From Candidatus Latescibacterota bacterium (GTDB lineage Bacteria > Latescibacterota > UBA2968 > GCA-2709665), in contig CAXXJS010000031.1 of the NCBI GenBank assembly GCA_963662665.2, forward strand, positions 32,001 through 96,000: a stretch of DNA of 64,000 nt, in the 5' to 3' direction. The notes below the pieces were generated by a model. That model saw only the letters and a list, made by a program, of their open reading frames with translations. It was not told where the DNA came from and searched no databases. Of this stretch, positions 1-10,085 are shown in pieces; the stretch's first letter is position 1; every line of letters begins with the position of its first letter. Made by a program: the position numbers and the translations under genes.

Positions 1-23
1 GACTTCTCATAAAGGGTAACGAA

Positions 24-272
24 ATGAGCGCAGGTGAAAAAATATCGATTTACGTGAGAGGCAGAAGATTCGAGATCGAAAGGGAGAAAATTAGCTACAG
101 CGAGGTTGTAAATTTGGCGTATCCAGACGGCAAACATGGCCCGCTGTACGAGTATGACGTGACGTGGAAAGACGGACCTAGAGGAGAAGAAGACGGCGTA
201 CTCAATGAAGGCGAAGAAACGAAAATTGTCGAAGGGATGAAATTTGATGTCAAATTCACTGATAAGTCGTAA
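24..272 (+). CDS. Multi-ubiquitin-type beta-grasp (ubiquitin-like) protein
   Basis: 82 aa; pattern I.V.G..FE....ISYSEVV.LAY...YDVTW..GP.....G.L..G....I.EGMKFDV..TDKS resembles bacterial multiubiquitin-domain proteins; overlaps the downstream ThiF gene. Confidence 0.8.
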   Translation: MSAGEKISIYVRGRRFEIEREKISYSEVVNLAYPDGKHGPLYEYDVTWKDGPRGEEDGVLNEGEETKIVEGMKFDVKFTDKS

Positions 273-1476
273 CGCTGACTTGTCCGCCTTAGTGGAGGTA
301 GGCTACCGCGTAGAGATACGTGGAGCCTACCTTCTGGTGAAGGGGATTCCGTACGTAAAACAAGACGGTAACATTGCTACCGGAACCTTAGTTGCAGGTC
401 TGGAGCTTGCTGGCGACCAGACTAGACCTCCCGGGGACCATACTGTCTGGTGGGCCGGTGAAACACCACACCGGTGTTCGGGAGATAGCATGGAGCAGTA
501 CTTGAGCTGTGGACACTGGCCATCTGGGCACGACTTGGGCGAAGGGATCACAGTTTACATGCGATGGTCGCGGAAACCAAGGAGTGCTGGTGGCAGCCGT
601 GGTTACAGCGACAACCAAGAAAAAATAGAAACTTACGTCGAGGAAGTCGGCGGCGAAGCCGAAGCGAAACGACCAGGAATATTGGAGGCTGCAAAGGCAG
701 GCGGCAAACCAGAGATTGCAGCAACGACACGGTTCAAATACATCAATACAAACTTGTATCGGAACGGGACAAAAGCAATAGAACAGCGAATAGCGGAAGA
801 GGTAGTGGCGGTTGTCGGTGTAGGAGGAAGCGGGTCTTACCTTGTCGATATTTTAGCCAAGACGGACATAAAGGAATTACACCTTATTGACGACGATGTA
901 ATGGAACAGCACAACGCGTTTAGAATTGCAGGAGCGGCATCGATACAGGAACTCGGAGTCGGAAAGAGCAAAGTTGAATGGCATCAAGAACGATATGCGG
1001 CCGTGAGGGAAGAAGGGGTTTACGTGCATAAACGGCGGCTAGATGTGGAGACTCTGGACGAATTGGAAAGGTTCACCACAGTGTTCATAGCAGTCGACAA
1101 ATTGGACACGAGAAGGAAGATTCAACAAAAATGCAATGAGCTAGGCGTGTCTCATATTAGCGTTGGAATAGGGATGGATATAGAGGGCGAAAATGACGAC
1201 GAAATAGGTGGAATGGTTAAGATAGAAACTCGGCACAAGGCATTCGCGGACATGACGACTTGCGCAAGCGACAAGAATCCAGGAGAAGAAGACGTGGCAA
1301 ACATATACGGGAACATTCAGACTGCCGAACTAAACATGCTTGGTGCCGCACTCGCGATCACAGAGTGGAAGGCCAGCAAGCGCATCTATCGAAATGAAAG
1401 GGAAAGTGGGATCGAAAGCGTGATATATTCAGTAAGCACTGGACGTATATTGCAGACACAAGAGGGACGGAATTGA
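247..1476 (+). CDS. ThiF/E1-family adenylyltransferase with N-terminal E2-like (DUF6791-like) domain
   Basis: VGVGGSGS nucleotide-binding loop, DDD...HNAFR, FIAVD, NIQTAELN; ~170-aa N-terminal extra domain (YLLVKGIPYV...SRKP...Y...EKIETY); ATG at 247. Confidence 0.85.
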   Translation: MSNSLISRNADLSALVEVGYRVEIRGAYLLVKGIPYVKQDGNIATGTLVAGLELAGDQTRPPGDHTVWWAGETPHRCSGDSMEQYLSCGHWPSGHDLGEGITVYMRWSRKPRSAGGSRGYSDNQEKIETYVEEVGGEAEAKRPGILEAAKAGGKPEIAATTRFKYINTNLYRNGTKAIEQRIAEEVVAVVGVGGSGSYLVDILAKTDIKELHLIDDDVMEQHNAFRIAGAASIQELGVGKSKVEWHQERYAAVREEGVYVHKRRLDVETLDELERFTTVFIAVDKLDTRRKIQQKCNELGVSHISVGIGMDIEGENDDEIGGMVKIETRHKAFADMTTCASDKNPGEEDVANIYGNIQTAELNMLGAALAITEWKASKRIYRNERESGIESVIYSVSTGRILQTQEGRN

Positions 1477-1886
1477 GAATGAGGACGCGCAGATGGCAGG
1501 CACTTTGGGTCGCGGATATGCCACAAGAGATGGAAGAAGGGAAGGTGTATGTTTCGGTAAAACACCGGCTCACGGAACATTTGTGTGCCTGCGGATGTAA
1601 AACGGAGATAAGTCTTCCGCTCGGGCCGAGTGAATGGTGTATCGAATTCGACGGAGATTCAATAAGCATTCGACCATCCGTCGGGAACTGGCGATTGCCT
1701 TGTAGAAGCCATTACATTATCCGACACGGCTTAACTGTGTGGTGCAAGCAGATTTCGATCAAAGAAGAAGAGGCTGGAAGGATACGAGACCGACAGGAAA
1801 AGGAACAAGATATCACCAGGAAACAAATGGAGCGAAGATGGTGGAATCGTATCGCGAGAAGAATAATGCGGAGCATTAAACGGTAA
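1473..1886 (+). CDS. DUF6527-like Cys/His-rich putative metal-binding protein
   Basis: MP..MEEG.VYVS, HLCACGC, W....DG..ISIRPSVGNW..PCRSHY.I; start overlaps the ThiF stop. Confidence 0.8.
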   Translation: MRMRTRRWQALWVADMPQEMEEGKVYVSVKHRLTEHLCACGCKTEISLPLGPSEWCIEFDGDSISIRPSVGNWRLPCRSHYIIRHGLTVWCKQISIKEEEAGRIRDRQEKEQDITRKQMERRWWNRIARRIMRSIKR

Positions 1887-1917
1887 CCGGTCTTGCAACT
1901 ACAGGACTCCAAAAAAC

Positions 1918-1960
1918 GCCCAACGGTTTGTCTCTGTCCGTTGGGCTTCTTTCTGTTTTT
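1918..1960 (+). terminator. Putative intrinsic terminator of the Ubl operon
   Basis: GCCCAACGG-N11-CCGTTGGGC followed by a T-rich tract. Confidence 0.6.
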
Positions 1961-2047
1961 CGAGTCAGTTTGGCGAGATGTAAGGATCGGCGCCAGGTTA
2001 CTTGATCCCTGGCGAGAGGTCTCCGATGTCCGAACGTCTCCCCGATC

Positions 2048-2425
2048 TCATGCCCGAAAGGTTCTCAGGTCGAGTTCACCGATCGCGCGGTAGTGTTTTC
2101 CGTTGGCCGTGCAAAGTGCCATGTGATGTTCGACGGCGGTTGCCGCGATCAGGGCATCCGCCAGCGAGAGTGCCGTCTTGAGAGTAAATTCTTCCATATA
2201 CACGGATGCTCTGTGTCCGATGTTTTCAGTGAGGGGCAAGGTCTGAAAAGCGTGATCTTTGAGGAAATACTTGATTTCCCTTAATTCCTGCCGGCTTCTC
2301 GCACCCCGGATCAACTCCGCGTACGTAACGAGCGATACCCGGCGTTCATTTTGCTCTTCAACATGCTGCGCTGCCCCTGGATGGCCCCTGAAAACCCAGA
2401 TCAATACGTCGGTATCAAAGATCAT
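2048..2425 (-). CDS. vapC: PIN-domain toxin (VapC family)
   Basis: DTDVLI, E(LIRG), DALIAATA, TAN.KHY acidic PIN motifs. Confidence 0.9.
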   Translation of the reverse strand: MIFDTDVLIWVFRGHPGAAQHVEEQNERRVSLVTYAELIRGARSRQELREIKYFLKDHAFQTLPLTENIGHRASVYMEEFTLKTALSLADALIAATAVEHHMALCTANGKHYRAIGELDLRTFRA

Positions 2426-2660
2426 CCAGGCGGCCTTTTCTCAGATTCCGGACGTAAGCGTCCACGTCCGCCATATCTTTCCTGTCTCGCCACATCCCGA
2501 AGGCTGAATGGTCCGTTACTGACTTTTCCGTTCGCTGCCGGCTGGGCGACAGAATCGCCTTCTCCTTGCCTCGATAATAGATGGTGACGGACTCGCAACG
2601 ATCGAGCGCGAGCAAGACGTCTTTCATGCGGCGTCTCAAATCCAGAATGGTTGCCTTCAT
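2415..2660 (-). CDS. vapB: Phd/YefM-type antitoxin
   Basis: MKATILDLRRRMKDVL...V.I.YRGK..A.L.P; AFGMW.DR; overlaps vapC; SD-like AAGGGGG. Confidence 0.85.
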   Translation of the reverse strand: MKATILDLRRRMKDVLLALDRCESVTIYYRGKEKAILSPSRQRTEKSVTDHSAFGMWRDRKDMADVDAYVRNLRKGRLDDL

Positions 2661-2791: not shown

Positions 2792-3039
2792 TCACCATAC
2801 TTCGCGGCCAATCGGAGGTCCGGTATCCACCTCGCCGTGTATGTTGTCCTTAGTCACACGGGCTAAAAGGTCGTCCAGATTCAAGTCGGACGCGCTCACG
2901 GGTTCGATGACCAACTTCCCGCCACGCAGCGACAACTCGAACTGTGAATCGGGTTCAAGTCCGATTTGAGTAGCGAGTGGCTCGGGAATACGAAGGACAA
3001 GATCATTGCCCCATTTCTGCACACGGGTTTTTGTGTCAT
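2792..3039 (-). pseudogene. mazE: MazE/AbrB-family antitoxin, orphan, possibly frameshifted at 5' end
   Basis: TRVQKWGN.L.LRIP...L..LLA.VT.DN.HGE.DTG...G.E.W; ATG at 3039 is one base out of frame across an A5 run (or GTG start at 3022); no mazF follows. Confidence 0.7.
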
Positions 3040-3331: not shown

Positions 3332-4216
3332 TCAGACGCCGTAATAGGATTCGACGGGGATGCCGGGAAGGATTTGACGCGCGGTTCGGGCGATGCCGTC
3401 GACCTCGGCGTCGCTCAAGGCTGTCACGTACGATTCGGCGGGTTTGCGGGCAACCGTGTAGATCTGGATGTTCTTGAGTTGCCCGCCCGCTTCCAGGACG
3501 TCGGACAGGACGCGGCAGAAGGCGAGGATCTCTTCATCGGGCGGGGGCTGGCCATGGACGCGCATAAACAGGCTTTGTATAACCAGTGGCCATCTTCGCG
3601 CAGCCAGTTTCAGATTGTCAACGATCCGTTCGAAAGAGATGCGGGTGCGTTCCACCAGGTGATAATATTCGGCCGTACCGGCCTCCAGTTTAGCCCAGAT
3701 TTCGCCGTTGTTCCGGTGCATGACGTCAAACGCTTCCAGGACGGCCGGGACGTGGAACCGAGTGCAGTTCGTTATGGCGGTGATTTTGACCTCCTGCAGG
3801 TCGAATGCACGTTTGACATCCGCGGTCTTCTGCACGATTTCTCCAAAACGGGGATAGGTTGTGGGTTCCCCGTCGCCCGAGAACGCGATATCGTTGATCC
3901 GTTTCAGCCGGTCCGGGATCTCTCTGAAGGGCGGTTGCTCAAATAGCCGGCCCTCAAGCGTGTCGCCGAGGAGGGCGCGGAGTTCCTCGATGATCCGGTC
4001 TTCGTCCACCTCGCGCAGTACGGGCCCAACGGTGCGATCCACCTGGCAATAGATGCAGTCAAAGTTGCAAATCTTGTCCGGATTCAGATTGATGCCAATC
4101 GAGATCCCTCCGGAGCGCCGTGAAAGTACGGGATAAACGTATCGGTTTTTCTCGAAGCGCCTGGGATGCGAGGTGACCGCCCGCCGGACGGCCGTATCGC
4201 CGGATGGAGTCGACAT
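3332..4216 (-). CDS. Radical SAM protein
   Basis: CNFDCIYC (CxxxCxxC), SRRSGG.SIG.NL, FSGDGEPT. Confidence 0.9.
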   Translation of the reverse strand: MSTPSGDTAVRRAVTSHPRRFEKNRYVYPVLSRRSGGISIGINLNPDKICNFDCIYCQVDRTVGPVLREVDEDRIIEELRALLGDTLEGRLFEQPPFREIPDRLKRINDIAFSGDGEPTTYPRFGEIVQKTADVKRAFDLQEVKITAITNCTRFHVPAVLEAFDVMHRNNGEIWAKLEAGTAEYYHLVERTRISFERIVDNLKLAARRWPLVIQSLFMRVHGQPPPDEEILAFCRVLSDVLEAGGQLKNIQIYTVARKPAESYVTALSDAEVDGIARTARQILPGIPVESYYGV

Positions 4217-4261
4217 ATTTTCACTTTCGTTTAGATGGAATTCACATCACCCGCTGTCTCA

Positions 4262-4416
4262 GTGTCCTGACCCAAGAATACCTAACCATTCTTCCGCCGA
4301 TTCATCGCGTCTCGCGGCGTTGCGATCGCTCGCCGAACTTACGCAGGTCGGTGGCGCCTTGCAAGCCGGGCGACTCGACGGCCGAATTCAGGCAGCCAAT
4401 TTCCGGGACAGAACAC
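4262..4416 (+). mobile_element. MITE family A, copy 1
   Basis: Imperfect TIRs GTGTCCTGACCCAAGAATA / ATTTCCGGGACAGAACAC; body homologous to 17181-17334 and 62960-63121. Confidence 0.7.
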
Positions 4417-4600
4417 CAGCAGCTTTGCGGGACATCCCTCGCCTTTCCTGAGATACCACAATATACCAAAATTATCCGTGCCGCGCACATTTCAACCGAA
4501 TTTACGCGGGATCGCACGTGAGGCCGTTTTCCACTTGTGCGCCGGATTGAAAATCGATACCTTAATTCGCGCAGGAAGGTAGACGGAAAAGCGGAGACGC

Positions 4601-4699: not shown

Positions 4700-5212
4700 A
4701 TGTCTACTTTCATTGGCAACCTGCCGGAACGGACGAAGGTCTGCAAAGTTACGTTTACCAACTGGGATAAGACGGTCGAATGCAAGCCGCACACCAACCT
4801 CCGGCAACTGGCAATCGACAACGATCTCGGTCTCTATAACGGGATCACCCGGTTCGTGAATTGCGAAGGCAACGGGTTGTGCGGAACCTGCACGGTCGAG
4901 GTTGTCCCGCAGGAGGGCATCACCGGGAAGGGCGCGAGGGAAAATCTGCGCTTTTTGCTGCTGAAAGGGAATCTGCGCCTGGCATGCCAGGTGGAGGTTA
5001 CCGGAGATATACAGGTCACCAAACACGCGGGGTTAAAGGGAAAAAAAGGGTACGCACCGGGAATCGAACAGGCCGAGGTGGTGCGCCTTTATCGCGACGA
5101 GGGCAGGACCATTGCGCAGATCGCCGAGCGGATGCAGTGTTCGGAGGCCATGGTGGTCACCCTGCTCGAACGCGGTCGCGTCGAATTGCGCCGACCGGGC
5201 TCGGCAGCATAG
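4700..5212 (+). CDS. 2Fe-2S ferredoxin with C-terminal helix-turn-helix-like domain
   Basis: CEGNGLCGTC...RLACQ plant-type 2Fe-2S ligands; tail VVRLYRDEGRTIAQIAERMQCSEAMV. Confidence 0.8.
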   Translation: MSTFIGNLPERTKVCKVTFTNWDKTVECKPHTNLRQLAIDNDLGLYNGITRFVNCEGNGLCGTCTVEVVPQEGITGKGARENLRFLLLKGNLRLACQVEVTGDIQVTKHAGLKGKKGYAPGIEQAEVVRLYRDEGRTIAQIAERMQCSEAMVVTLLERGRVELRRPGSAA

Positions 5213-5562: not shown

Positions 5563-8500
5563 ATGACCTGCCGCCATATCCAATTCCCGATACGCACGTT
5601 GTCGCTCATTCTGCTGTTGACCGCCCTGATGTCCGGCCCGGCGAGTGCGCAATCCCAGGCGACAACAGGGGTGATCCGGGGCTACGTATGCGATCAGTTC
5701 AACAATCCGATCGGAGATGCCACTGTCGTTCTCAGGGAAGCCGGTACAAACTACCGGAGAGTTCTCGCGTCGTCGGAACTGGGGCTGTTTACCGCGACCC
5801 TGTTGCCTCTCGGATACTACGACGTGACGGTACGGGCGGAGGGATGGTCCGAAGCCCGCCAGACCGGCGTGCAGGTCCGTGTTGGCGACACAGTGGATCT
5901 TCTCATCAAGATGATTATTGAAATGGAGGAGTTCGTCGTTGTAGCCAGAAGGCCGGCCGTGGACGTCACCCGGACCGAGACGGCCACACGCCTCCCCGAG
6001 GAGGCGGTACAGGACCTGCCCAACAACGGGCGCAATTTTCTGAACCTCACACTGTTGACTCCCGGCGTGAGCATCGTCCAGGGGCCGGACGGAGACGAAC
6101 TGACCATTGGGGGGCAACGCGGCATCCACAACAACATCTCGGTGGACGGCGCAGATTTCAACAACCCGTTTTTCGGCGAGCAACGCGGGGGGCAGCGCCC
6201 GGCCTTTACGTTCAACCTGGACGCCGTGGCGGAAATCGTCGTCGTCCCGCAGGGTGCAAACGCGGAGTTCGGGCGGTCCAGCGGCGGCTTTGTCAACGTC
6301 ATTACCAAGTCGGGTACCAACAGACTCAGCGGCTCGGCGCATTTTTTCGGAAAGCACGACGCGCTTTCCGAAATTGCGAGGCACAACGGCACCGAGCGCA
6401 GGCCGCGCTTCAGACAGGGGCAGTTCGGTTTCACGCTCGGCGGTCCTCTGAAGCGGGACAAGGCATTCTTCTTTGCCGCTTACGACCAGCAGGTGTTGAG
6501 AGACACCCGGCAGAACGACGTCGAGAGGATGGACTCCCGGCTGCGGGACTTTATGGACACGGGTTTCAACGGGGCGTTACGGGGAGACTACGGCCCCATC
6601 GACCGTACCAACGACGCCCGCGCTTTTCTTGCCAAGGTGGATCTTCGTCTCTCGAAGGACCATTCCGCCACTTTCAAATACAACTACACATGGTCCGAAC
6701 AGGAGAACGGCACCTTCGATGTGGACGCCTGGGCGCGCAGCGCCAACGCGATTGAAAGAGACTGGTCCCACGCATTAAACGGCAGCCTGGTATCGCTTCT
6801 CACGCCGAGCACCATCAATGAATTCCGGTTCCAGGTCTCCCGCGAGGACCGTCCGCGTCCCTACGAGGGTCCGGTCAACCCCGATACCGGGCGCCCCTTT
6901 CCCGATACCGGCATGGACTATGAGTACGGTTATCGCTTCGGCATGCCGTTCTTTATTCCGGTGGAATACTACGACACCCGCGTTCAGCTGCTCAATAATA
7001 TCTCCTTTGCCAGGGGCGGTCACCTGTTCAAGGCCGGCGTCGAGTGGAACCGTGTCGAAGCCGCGCAGACCTTTATCGGTTTCGCCAACGGGCGGTACAT
7101 CTTCGATTCCGTGGACGGGTTTCTCAACTTCGTGGAAAAGGGCAACCGCTACGTCGAGTGTTCCGACGGCAGTTTCAGCATCGAGGGCGAATGCCCCGCT
7201 GGCGCGCAAATCACGGGACCGGTCCTGTTCTATCTGGAACAGGCGGGTGTGGGCGGGCTGTCAGTCGAGGAAGCGGGCACACAGCGCATTCCGCAGCACG
7301 AACTGGCGTTGTTCGTGCAGGACAGTTGGCAGGCCTCCAACCGGCTGACGCTCAACTACGGTTTGCGCTGGGAGGCGCAGATTCAGCCCGAACCCATCAC
7401 CGATCCTTCCGAGGTCTTCTTCAGCAATTTCATTGGCAAATCCGTGACCAACGACCAGGGCGTTCACAGGTTCCCGTCCAACGGCAGAATTCCCTCCGAC
7501 CTGGATATGCTCCAGCCGCGGATAGGCCTGGCCTACGACGCGCACGGTGACGATAAGACCCTCTTGCGCGCCAGCGCGGGGATTTACTACGCCCGCATTC
7601 CGGGACTGAATCTGGCCAGCACCCGCTCCACGAACGGCTCGCGAGGGCAATCCCTGTTCCGGTCCAGCGAGTTCACGCCGATCCTGGGGCCGCCCCCCAC
7701 GTTCGGCGAGTTGCTGCCATCGCCGGAGGGCGATCCCTTCCAGCCCAACATATACGTCTTCCATGAGCGCTTCGAAAACCCGCGGACCATTAACCTGAAC
7801 GCGGGAATCGAGCACGAGTTTCATGCGGACGGGCTCGTGGGTTCCATCGACTATACCTACGCCCGTACCGACTATCTCACGCGTTTCGTAAACCGCAACG
7901 ATGCCGCGTTCGGATCTCCCTGGTCAACCGGTTTGGGGTCGGAGGGAGGTAACGGCATCGGCGACCTCACGGCTGTGGAGAGTACGGCGAGGTCGCGATA
8001 TCACGGCTTCAGTCTTGGGCTGCGGCAGATGGCGAGCGACAACCTGCAGTTCCAGGCGAACTACACGATGTCCTGGGACAGGTCCGACGACGATAACGAA
8101 CGCGACCCGTTCAGCTTTCGCTACGTTGATCCGACCCGGCTGGACCGGGAGTGGGGCTATTCCGACCGCGACCAGCGCCACCGCTTCAATGCCTGGGCGC
8201 TGGCCGTACTGCCCGGCGATATCTATATGAACAATCGCGTGAGCCTTTATTCACCACAACCGGTCTCAGCCGCCTGCGGCGGCAACAACCGGGCGTCTTC
8301 GAAGTATTCGACAAACCCCTGGGGGCCCGCCTCCGACCGCATCTGCGCCGACGGCAGCATCGTCCGGCGCAATACCCTGCGCAAGGACCACGGGTTCTTC
8401 TCGTGGGACGTGCGCCTCACCCGCCCCTTTCCCATGGGCAGCGGCACGTTGGAGGCCATCCTGGAGGTCTTCAACCTGTTCAATACGGACAACTACCGCG

Positions 8501-10024: not shown

Positions 10025-10085
10025 CGGTTCGACTCCTGGCGGAGGATCAAACAGAGTATTTCAAGCAGTGGCTGGCACTCGACTA
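10021..10085 (+). pseudogene. Possible remnant of a TOPRIM-like (DUF4276-type) partner gene
   Basis: TTG overlapping the ATPase stop; VRLLAEDQTE.F...LA resembles the N-terminal VEGQTE motif, then similarity is lost. Confidence 0.4.

Follow-up and report, generated by a model that had tools for sequence, protein, structure and literature searches.

A probable Type II Bub operon for ubiquitin-like conjugation on a low-GC island of a Latescibacterota bacterium, with a candidate capH-capP control module upstream

In a stretch of 64,000 nucleotides from a Candidatus Latescibacterota bacterium (contig CAXXJS010000031.1, positions 32,001 to 96,000; this whole stretch is referred to as the window), three adjacent genes at positions 24 to 1886 very probably form an intact Type II Bub operon (formerly "6E.2/DUF6527"), composed of bubA, bubBD and bubE, as judged by their likeness to characterised relatives. 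An earlier note, made from the DNA letters without database searches, had described the genes as an operon for a ubiquitin-like protein (Ubl), an E2-E1 fusion and a DUF6527 protein, and profile searches bear this out. The locus adds a new example to a biochemically characterised family whose chemistry is known already, and in a little-studied lineage it combines an intact Type II Bub operon with what is probably a DNA-damage switch. It may be of value as a compact test case, with a Ubl of only 82 aa, no processing step, and a clear promoter accompanied by an operator-like motif. The known Bub chemistry is unchanged by this operon.

Operons of the "6E/DUF6527" type were renamed "Bub" by Ye, Gong, Chambers & Corbett (bioRxiv 10.1101/2024.11.21.623953; cited as Ye et al 2026 in PMC13373217). 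According to that preprint, the Type II (6E.2) operons encode the Ubl BubA, the E2-E1 fusion BubBD and the DUF6527 protein BubE, typically without a JAB protein. In the authors' account, in vitro work established that conjugation proceeds through a Tyr of the E1 crossover loop and a Ser of the E2, as oxyesters rather than thioesters; the E. coli BubBD mutants described are R219A, Y342F and S106A, and the Type II E2 Ser is said to be accompanied by an invariant Lys and an invariant His. BubE is presented there as a weak protease that relies on a Ser/His dyad, contains a C4 zinc site and takes off BubA conjugates, the Citrobacter protein having the C4 site together with S92/H102. The proteins for which that account demonstrates conjugation and BubE peptidase activity are those of E. 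coli and Citrobacter alone. The statement of the earlier note that this architecture was not functionally resolved is hence outdated. As to phage defence, which the note had considered, the published accounts attribute an antiphage role to no Bub operon and their authors have so far seen no protection from phages (EMBO J 2026, PMC13373217; bioRxiv 10.1101/2024.11.21.623953).

The features of the operon and its immediate surroundings are as follows (window coordinates):

24..272, + strand: bubA, 82 aa, ubiquitin-like, with a single Multi_ubiq beta-grasp (Pfam)
247..1476, + strand: bubBD, 409 aa from the ATG, E2-E1 fusion; alternative start TTG 244
277..750, + strand: E2-like DUF6791 domain of BubBD, with H65, S108 (codon 568-570) and K110
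781..1473, + strand: ThiF-type E1 adenylation domain of BubBD, with a Gly-rich nucleotide loop, R226, K242, D284 and Y354
1479..1886, + strand: bubE (DUF6527), 135 aa from ATG 1479, or 137 aa if TTG 1473 is the start
1918..1960, + strand: terminator-like hairpin and T-rich tract, 32 nt past the bubE stop
1..2053: right-hand end of a low-GC island, with conserved core DNA from 2054 on

All four domains named by the earlier note for a profile search were matched over the curated Pfam cut-offs, namely Multi_ubiq in BubA (E 2.5e-10), DUF6791 (1e-33) and ThiF (2.2e-15) in BubBD, and DUF6527 in BubE (1.6e-20). BubBD also matched NCBIfam PRK06153 at 4.8e-86, under that model's cut-off. Pfam detected no JAB domain in the three operon proteins, as the note had said, or in the 10 neighbouring open reading frames (ORFs) scanned. 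PADLOC, likewise suggested there, had no model for BubA or BubE and gave on BubBD weak Cap2 'E1-E2' matches to the ThiF part, so that the 2023 defence library fails to recognise Type II Bub. All three ORFs are full length, with 98-100% coverage relative to their homologues.

The genes are tightly packed and set apart in composition. The overlap reported earlier is clear for bubA and bubBD (26 nt); bubBD and bubE overlap (by 4 nt) only if translation of bubE starts at TTG 1473, and are otherwise separated by 2 nt. The A-richness noted for the three genes is evident from window positions 1-1800, where GC is 0.47-0.54 and AT skew +0.09 to +0.36, compared with 0.52-0.62 and about -0.14 to +0.15 past position 2000, and operon GC is 0.492 vs 0.588 for the genome. 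A closing terminator had also been proposed. At that place a 9-bp G+C-rich stem (1918-1926/1938-1946) encloses a loop of 11 nt and a T-rich tract occupies 1947-1960; the 81 nt that contain the hairpin (1885-1965) have a folding energy of -24.6 kcal/mol (z -2.81 vs shuffles). This hairpin looks terminator-like; it was not listed by a consensus terminator scan restricted to loops of 3-8 nt, because its 11-nt loop exceeds the limit of 8.

The operon retains all the family-defining residues, which are H65, S108, K110, R226 and Y354 in BubBD and C38/C40/C42/C77, S69 and H80 in BubE. For BubBD they were followed through an alignment of 161 rows, consisting of the query, 140 full-length representatives (~30-55% identity; from 150 listed, filtered to 370-430 aa) and 20 closer sequences (every sixth of 120 listed). 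In the E2 half, H65 is present in 161/161 rows, S108 in 156/161 and K110 in 141/161; in the E1 half, G191/G193, R226 (codon 922-924) and K242 are kept in 161/161, D284 in 154/161 and Y354 of the crossover loop (codon 1306-1308) in 158/161. No conserved Cys column was found at either catalytic position of this alignment, and the Cys residues of the query sit in columns without conservation. In two homologues of 395 aa, the Ser, Arg and Tyr columns fall at their own positions 106, 219 and 342, which is the numbering of the published mutants; a cluster look-up did not show either of them to be the E. coli ZDHYS365 protein. As a separate observation, Cys replaces Ser at the S108 column in 5/161 homologues, and therefore some family members may use a thioester at the E2 step.

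Structural comparison points in the same direction for the E1 half. The AlphaFold2 (AF2) model of BubBD has a predicted local distance difference test (pLDDT) score of 91.1, and its only low-confidence segment is 337-348, just N-terminal of Y354, as the crossover loop is expected to be mobile. The top Foldseek matches of this model in the PDB are the Citrobacter BubCD structures 9eav, 9eae, 9ea4, 9ea5 and 9ea8, with E values from 1e-13 (9eav_B) to 1.6e-12, and BubCD is also the best PDB sequence match of the BubBD family profile (3.5e-12). R226 is aligned with the adenylation Arg (NLNR) of Citrobacter BubCD. In the N-terminal part the model runs from N-terminal helices through four strands and a hairpin ending in S108 to a long helix, a predicted order compatible with a UBC core minus its last two helices, as described in the literature.

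The sole PDB sequence match of BubA is 9cd2_A ('ZDHYS365 multi-ubiquitin domain protein', E 2.2e-6), in which residues 6-82 of BubA are aligned to 146-222 and both chains end in TDKS. The stop codon directly follows ...FTDKS in bubA, and [D/V][K/R]S-stop closes 17/17 BubA sequences (the query and 16 homologues from the loci). BubA would thus be synthesised with a free reactive C-terminus (...TDKS), in keeping with an operon that has no JAB peptidase for processing. According to Gong et al., 40% of Bub Ubls have a single domain.

In BubE the four Cys and the Ser and His are all invariant in an alignment of 64 rows; among 114 sequences (numbering from TTG), C38/C40/C42 are kept in 113/114 and C77, S69 (codon 1677-1679) and H80 (codon 1710-1712) in 114/114. 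The AF2 model (pLDDT 90.8) has an 8-strand beta-sandwich and, C-terminal to it, a long basic helix (94-134), and its comparison with PDB folds returned 0 matches at E<=0.001; Ye et al. describe their own BubE models likewise, as a compact fold of 8 strands with a terminal helix that lacks homologues in the PDB. The HxCxCxC...CxxH motif pointed out by the earlier note is present and conserved, with the difference that its last His is catalytic in the account of Ye et al., the zinc site consisting of the four Cys. Of the two functions offered by the note for this protein, the E3-like zinc-binding adaptor finds no support, and the processing enzyme agrees with the published account of DUF6527 (BubE) as a Ser/His protease by which BubA conjugates are removed. 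A predicted complex of BubE(1-95) with BubA scored 0.76, a mark attained by 58/80 solved complexes and 2/110 mismatched pairs, the best of 3 controls reaching 0.01. At least 92% of the contacts agree between runs, the partner pLDDT is at least 83, and the tail of BubA (75-82) is placed against BubE 66-73 (ATG numbering; this includes Ser67 = S69). No solved BubE complex exists. The modelling supports a predicted binding of BubE to BubA with the BubA C-terminus at the Ser/His dyad.

If this operon works like its characterised homologues from E. coli ZDHYS365 and Citrobacter, ATP would be bound by the E1 half of BubBD, which would adenylate the C-terminal carboxylate of BubA by means of R226 and the Gly-rich loop. 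BubA would then be handed as an oxyester to Y354 of the crossover loop and next to S108 of the N-terminal E2-like domain, aided by K110 and H65, from which it would be transferred onto target lysines. BubE, a presumed Ser69/His80 protease stabilised by zinc (C38/C40/C42/C77), would bind BubA with the tail in its active-site loop and cleave BubA conjugates, thereby holding the pathway in check. Expression would probably be governed by the CapH-like repressor and CapP-like M78 peptidase encoded upstream in the same orientation, with the Bub genes being induced from the capH promoter once CapP removes CapH after DNA damage.

The operon appears to be intact and under selection. Related loci were found with a 20-row alignment of closer homologues, and the order bubA-bubBD-bubE is kept, together with the same 26-nt bubA/bubBD overlap, in 14/14 of them (titled genomes). 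Against four orthologous loci, nonsynonymous divergence (dN) is far under synonymous divergence (dS) in all three genes, with dN/dS of 0.04-0.17 in the 8/12 comparisons that yielded a value, dS being saturated; in the other 4/12, saturation of dS made the ratio not computable.

Among known systems, the closest counterpart is the Type II Bub of E. coli ZDHYS365, which has the same gene order without JAB, the same E2 Ser, Lys and His, the same E1 Arg and Tyr, and likewise a BubE with a C4 zinc site and a Ser/His dyad. The solved E. coli BubA (9cd2) has the same TDKS end, on three beta-grasps rather than the single one (82 aa) found here. Unlike that system, the present one has an uncultured-type lineage as host and a capH-capP pair co-oriented with the operon, and in this genome and in the related locus L009 an ORF of 102 aa lies between capH-capP and bubA. 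Type I Bub (6E.1; Citrobacter sp. RHBSTW-00271, 9ea4/9eae/9eav) comprises BubAB, BubCD (JAB-E1) and BubE. It shares with our operon the BubE family, WSR[H/K] around the E2 Ser and oxyester chemistry, and its E1 domain is the best structure and sequence match of BubBD; it differs in the fusion of JAB to E1, in a Prok-E2_E-type E2 and in having a Ubl-E2 precursor or separate genes, and the E2 domains of the two types have no significant sequence likeness. Bil systems are also comparable in that their E1 and E2 homologues conjugate a free Ubl to proteins and that they encode a deconjugating peptidase of their own, whereas their E1 and E2 are described as separate, with a catalytic Cys and a JAB deubiquitinase; here the two are fused, no conserved Cys is found, and the peptidase belongs to DUF6527.

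Since the window starts at G000:C31:32001, the genes upstream of bubA lie outside it. They are listed below in contig coordinates (genome G000, contig C31) or in those of the locus L001:

C31:30116-30511: CapH-like helix-turn-helix (HTH) protein (HTH_31 3.1e-9; PADLOC capH 1.3e-3)
C31:30499-31086: CapP-like M78 peptidase with a HEIGH motif, overlapping capH (Peptidase_M78 1.6e-10; PADLOC capP 3.4e-11)
L001:11526-11834 (G000:C31:31526-31834): basic ORF of 102 aa between capP and bubA, with a sub-threshold REase_AHJR-like match

The capH gene is preceded by a perfect TTGACA-17-TATAAT promoter (L001:10031-10059; 12/12 consensus sigma-70), directly followed by two copies of the 18-nt sequence ACGCCATAGACGGCG at 10061 and 10085, 24 nt apart, the first of which has 7-bp dyad arms. 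We consider this motif a putative CapH operator. The promoter and the ACGCCATAGACGGCG motif are conserved in L008 and L009, the closest titled loci; just upstream of bubA, conservation is confined to the ribosome-binding site. Among the 14 related loci, phmmer found clear counterparts of CapH and CapP in L008 and L009 only and weak ones in L010, no general profile scan for HTH or M78 proteins having been made elsewhere. A CapH+CapP-type pair is adjacent to many Bub operons, as here, and 219/544 Bub operons are reported with CapW or CapH+CapP in PMC13373217. Taken together, the arrangement suggests induction on DNA damage, with expression of the Bub genes probably under the control of capH-capP. 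The removal of CapH by CapP after DNA damage, and the mechanism of the pair, are reportedly the subject of work by Lau and colleagues from 2022.

The 102-aa ORF matches an REase_AHJR-like nuclease at 3.5e-5 (23.8 bits vs a cut-off of 26.1). It has a counterpart at the same place in L009 (2.8e-42), and phmmer found none in L008 or in the other 12 of the 14 loci. The clade is marked by a bare single-domain BubA whose TD[K/R]S end is invariant and by capH-capP co-oriented behind one operator-bearing promoter. It is conceivable, and in our estimate improbable, that the clade represents a unit induced by DNA damage, with the small PD-(D/E)xK-like (AHJR-like) nuclease acting as a functional partner of Bub tagging or as its effector; if true, this would provide a first handle on the cellular action of Bub conjugation.

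Several observations weigh against the interpretation of the locus as a Type II Bub operon controlled by capH-capP. The proposed chemistry is transferred from homologues with only 30-37% identity to BubBD, as judged by distant family members, and K110 is found in only 141/161 sequences although Ye et al. call this Lys invariant. The E2 assignment lacks a direct structural match. The fold search with the whole BubBD model gave E1 matches only, because the E1 half dominates such a search, and an E2-domain profile (15 rows, BubBD residues 1-160) had 0 matches at E<=10 among PDB sequences. When the E2 was compared by hhalign with the Type I BubB (Prok-E2_E) of two relatives, the probability was 0.24% (E 0.25) and only the WSR[K/H] motif was aligned, and a protein atlas held no usable match or model for the E2 region. 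The C-terminal extension of BubE is mainly basic and charged, not hydrophobic. As regards regulation, the capH match is weak (PADLOC 1.3e-3), the DNA just before bubA showed no promoter-like site, and a terminator-like hairpin as well as the 102-aa ORF separate capP from bubA, so that co-transcription of the Bub genes with capH-capP is something we can only infer.

A quite different role for the genes would be that of a Cap2/Cap3-type E2-E1 regulator (from Type II CBASS, Pycsar or MBL operons) in which a signalling enzyme takes the place of a free Ubl in conjugation. Cap2, like BubBD, is an E2-E1 fusion, and the likeness between Type II CBASS Cap2 and our system extends to ThiF-type adenylation, the link with CapH/CapP or CapW, and residence in mobile or defence islands; PADLOC 'E1-E2' models match BubBD with up to 2.1e-10, NCBIfam 6A-MBL cap2_3 does so with 1.3e-8, and the Cap2 chain 7tqd_A is among the fold matches (E 2.2e-10). 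These Cap2-type sequence matches are nevertheless confined to the ThiF part (residues ~170-300) and fall far under the cut-offs (33.9 bits vs 320). Cap2 relies on a catalytic Cys, takes a CD-NTase as substrate and is paired with the JAB peptidase Cap3, whereas BubBD has Ser and Tyr at the E2 and E1 catalytic positions, the operon has a dedicated Ubl and a DUF6527 gene, and neither it nor the neighbouring ORFs scanned revealed a gene for a CD-NTase, cyclase, MBL or JAB/Cap3. We regard this role as extremely unlikely. No better in our judgement is the prospect of a sulfur-carrier or cofactor system of the ThiF/MoeB kind, in which the small beta-grasp protein would be thiocarboxylated and not conjugated to proteins. 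The ThiF domain of BubBD does match TIGR02356 (6.7e-11) and PRK05690 (6.4e-9) weakly, and ThiF and MoeB are among its fold matches, but the scores lie far under the equivalog cut-offs (41.9 bits vs 275 for TIGR02356) and BubA ends in ...TDKS, not in the Gly-Gly of sulfur carriers. The fused E2-like domain, the linked protease gene and the location on a mobile, patchily distributed island also speak against a sulfur carrier, and neither a rhodanese domain nor thiazole or molybdopterin synthase genes were seen in the operon and the neighbouring ORFs scanned.

Slightly less improbable, and still very doubtful, is that the genes are an inactive, decaying Bub remnant carried passively on the island. 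The same island holds a transposase of the IS256/Mutator family, and bubBD is interrupted in the related locus L019. On the other hand, decay is hard to reconcile with three full-length ORFs that keep all their catalytic residues, with dN far under dS against the four orthologous loci, or with a capH promoter and operator-like motif that are intact and conserved.

The horizontal acquisition proposed by the earlier note is supported by comparison with relatives, which places the operon on accessory DNA. In blastn alignments, G000:C31:23094-34053 is a 10.96-kb insertion relative to the same-genus genome G002, where the flanks are 278 bp apart, and at the same site G008 has a different insert of ~6.7 kb instead. 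GC is 0.524 in the island and 0.59 and 0.572 in its flanks. The locus shows the genes capH-capP-bubA-bubBD-bubE travelling together as a unit into a chromosomal hot spot of variable content. A search of 14 kb (C31:20001-34000) for tRNA genes found none, the island borders had no direct repeat of at least 10 nt, and no integrase-like ORF was noticed.

The distribution of the Bub family is patchy. DUF6527 was detected in 5/14 other same-genus genomes and in 4/19 sister-family genomes searched, some of these loci being Type I Bub (JAB-E1 and Prok-E2_E). The closest titled relatives are metagenome-assembled genomes (MAGs) of Latescibacterota, with a BubBD identity of 73-74%. Plasmid records with a BubBD homologue number 127, of which 96 are predicted to be mobilizable or conjugative; all these homologues have <60% identity, and 50,697 phage records yielded none. 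Two of the relatives, G026 and G003 (same order and same genus), carry Type I Bub in the loci L022/L023; there the Multi_ubiq Ubl and Prok-E2_E are encoded by separate adjacent ORFs without a BubAB fusion, followed by JAB-ThiF (BubCD) and DUF6527. In the Vicinamibacterales MAG locus L019:5986-10524, bubBD is split, residues 6-314 being encoded at 6001-6930 and the rest from ~9764, which suggests an insertion of ~2.8 kb inside the gene.

Other cargo of the island was also recorded. At L001:5985-8112 (G000:C31:25985-28112), the gene for the IS256/Mutator-family transposase (Pfam 4.7e-39) overlaps an ORF of 281 aa at its 3' end; this ORF starts with a zinc-ribbon-like CxxC...CxxC and may have been truncated by the insertion. 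At the left end of the island (L001:3931-5355, G000:C31:23931-25355), a second CapH-like HTH gene (PADLOC capH 2.1e-8) is followed by the gene for a 342-aa protein without a Pfam or PADLOC match, and the two may constitute another regulated cargo module.

To the right of the operon, a PIN/VapC gene (2048..2425, - strand; Pfam 9.7e-16) overlaps an upstream ORF of 80 aa (2415..2660, - strand). This pair (window 2048-2660) is conserved with ~87% DNA identity in G002 and G008 and therefore belongs to the core flank, outside the Bub island; a phmmer query with the PIN protein had no match in the 14 related loci. A separate ORF resembling a MazE/AbrB-type antitoxin is located at 2792..3022 (- strand). 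Further along, between a radical-SAM gene (3332..4216, - strand) and an ORF at 4700..5212 (+ strand), window positions 4261-4420 contain an intergenic element of ~160 bp that is dispersed in dozens of copies (~70-91% identity) in each of five same-genus genomes and therefore looks like a miniature inverted-repeat transposable element (MITE) or a repetitive extragenic palindromic (REP)-type element.

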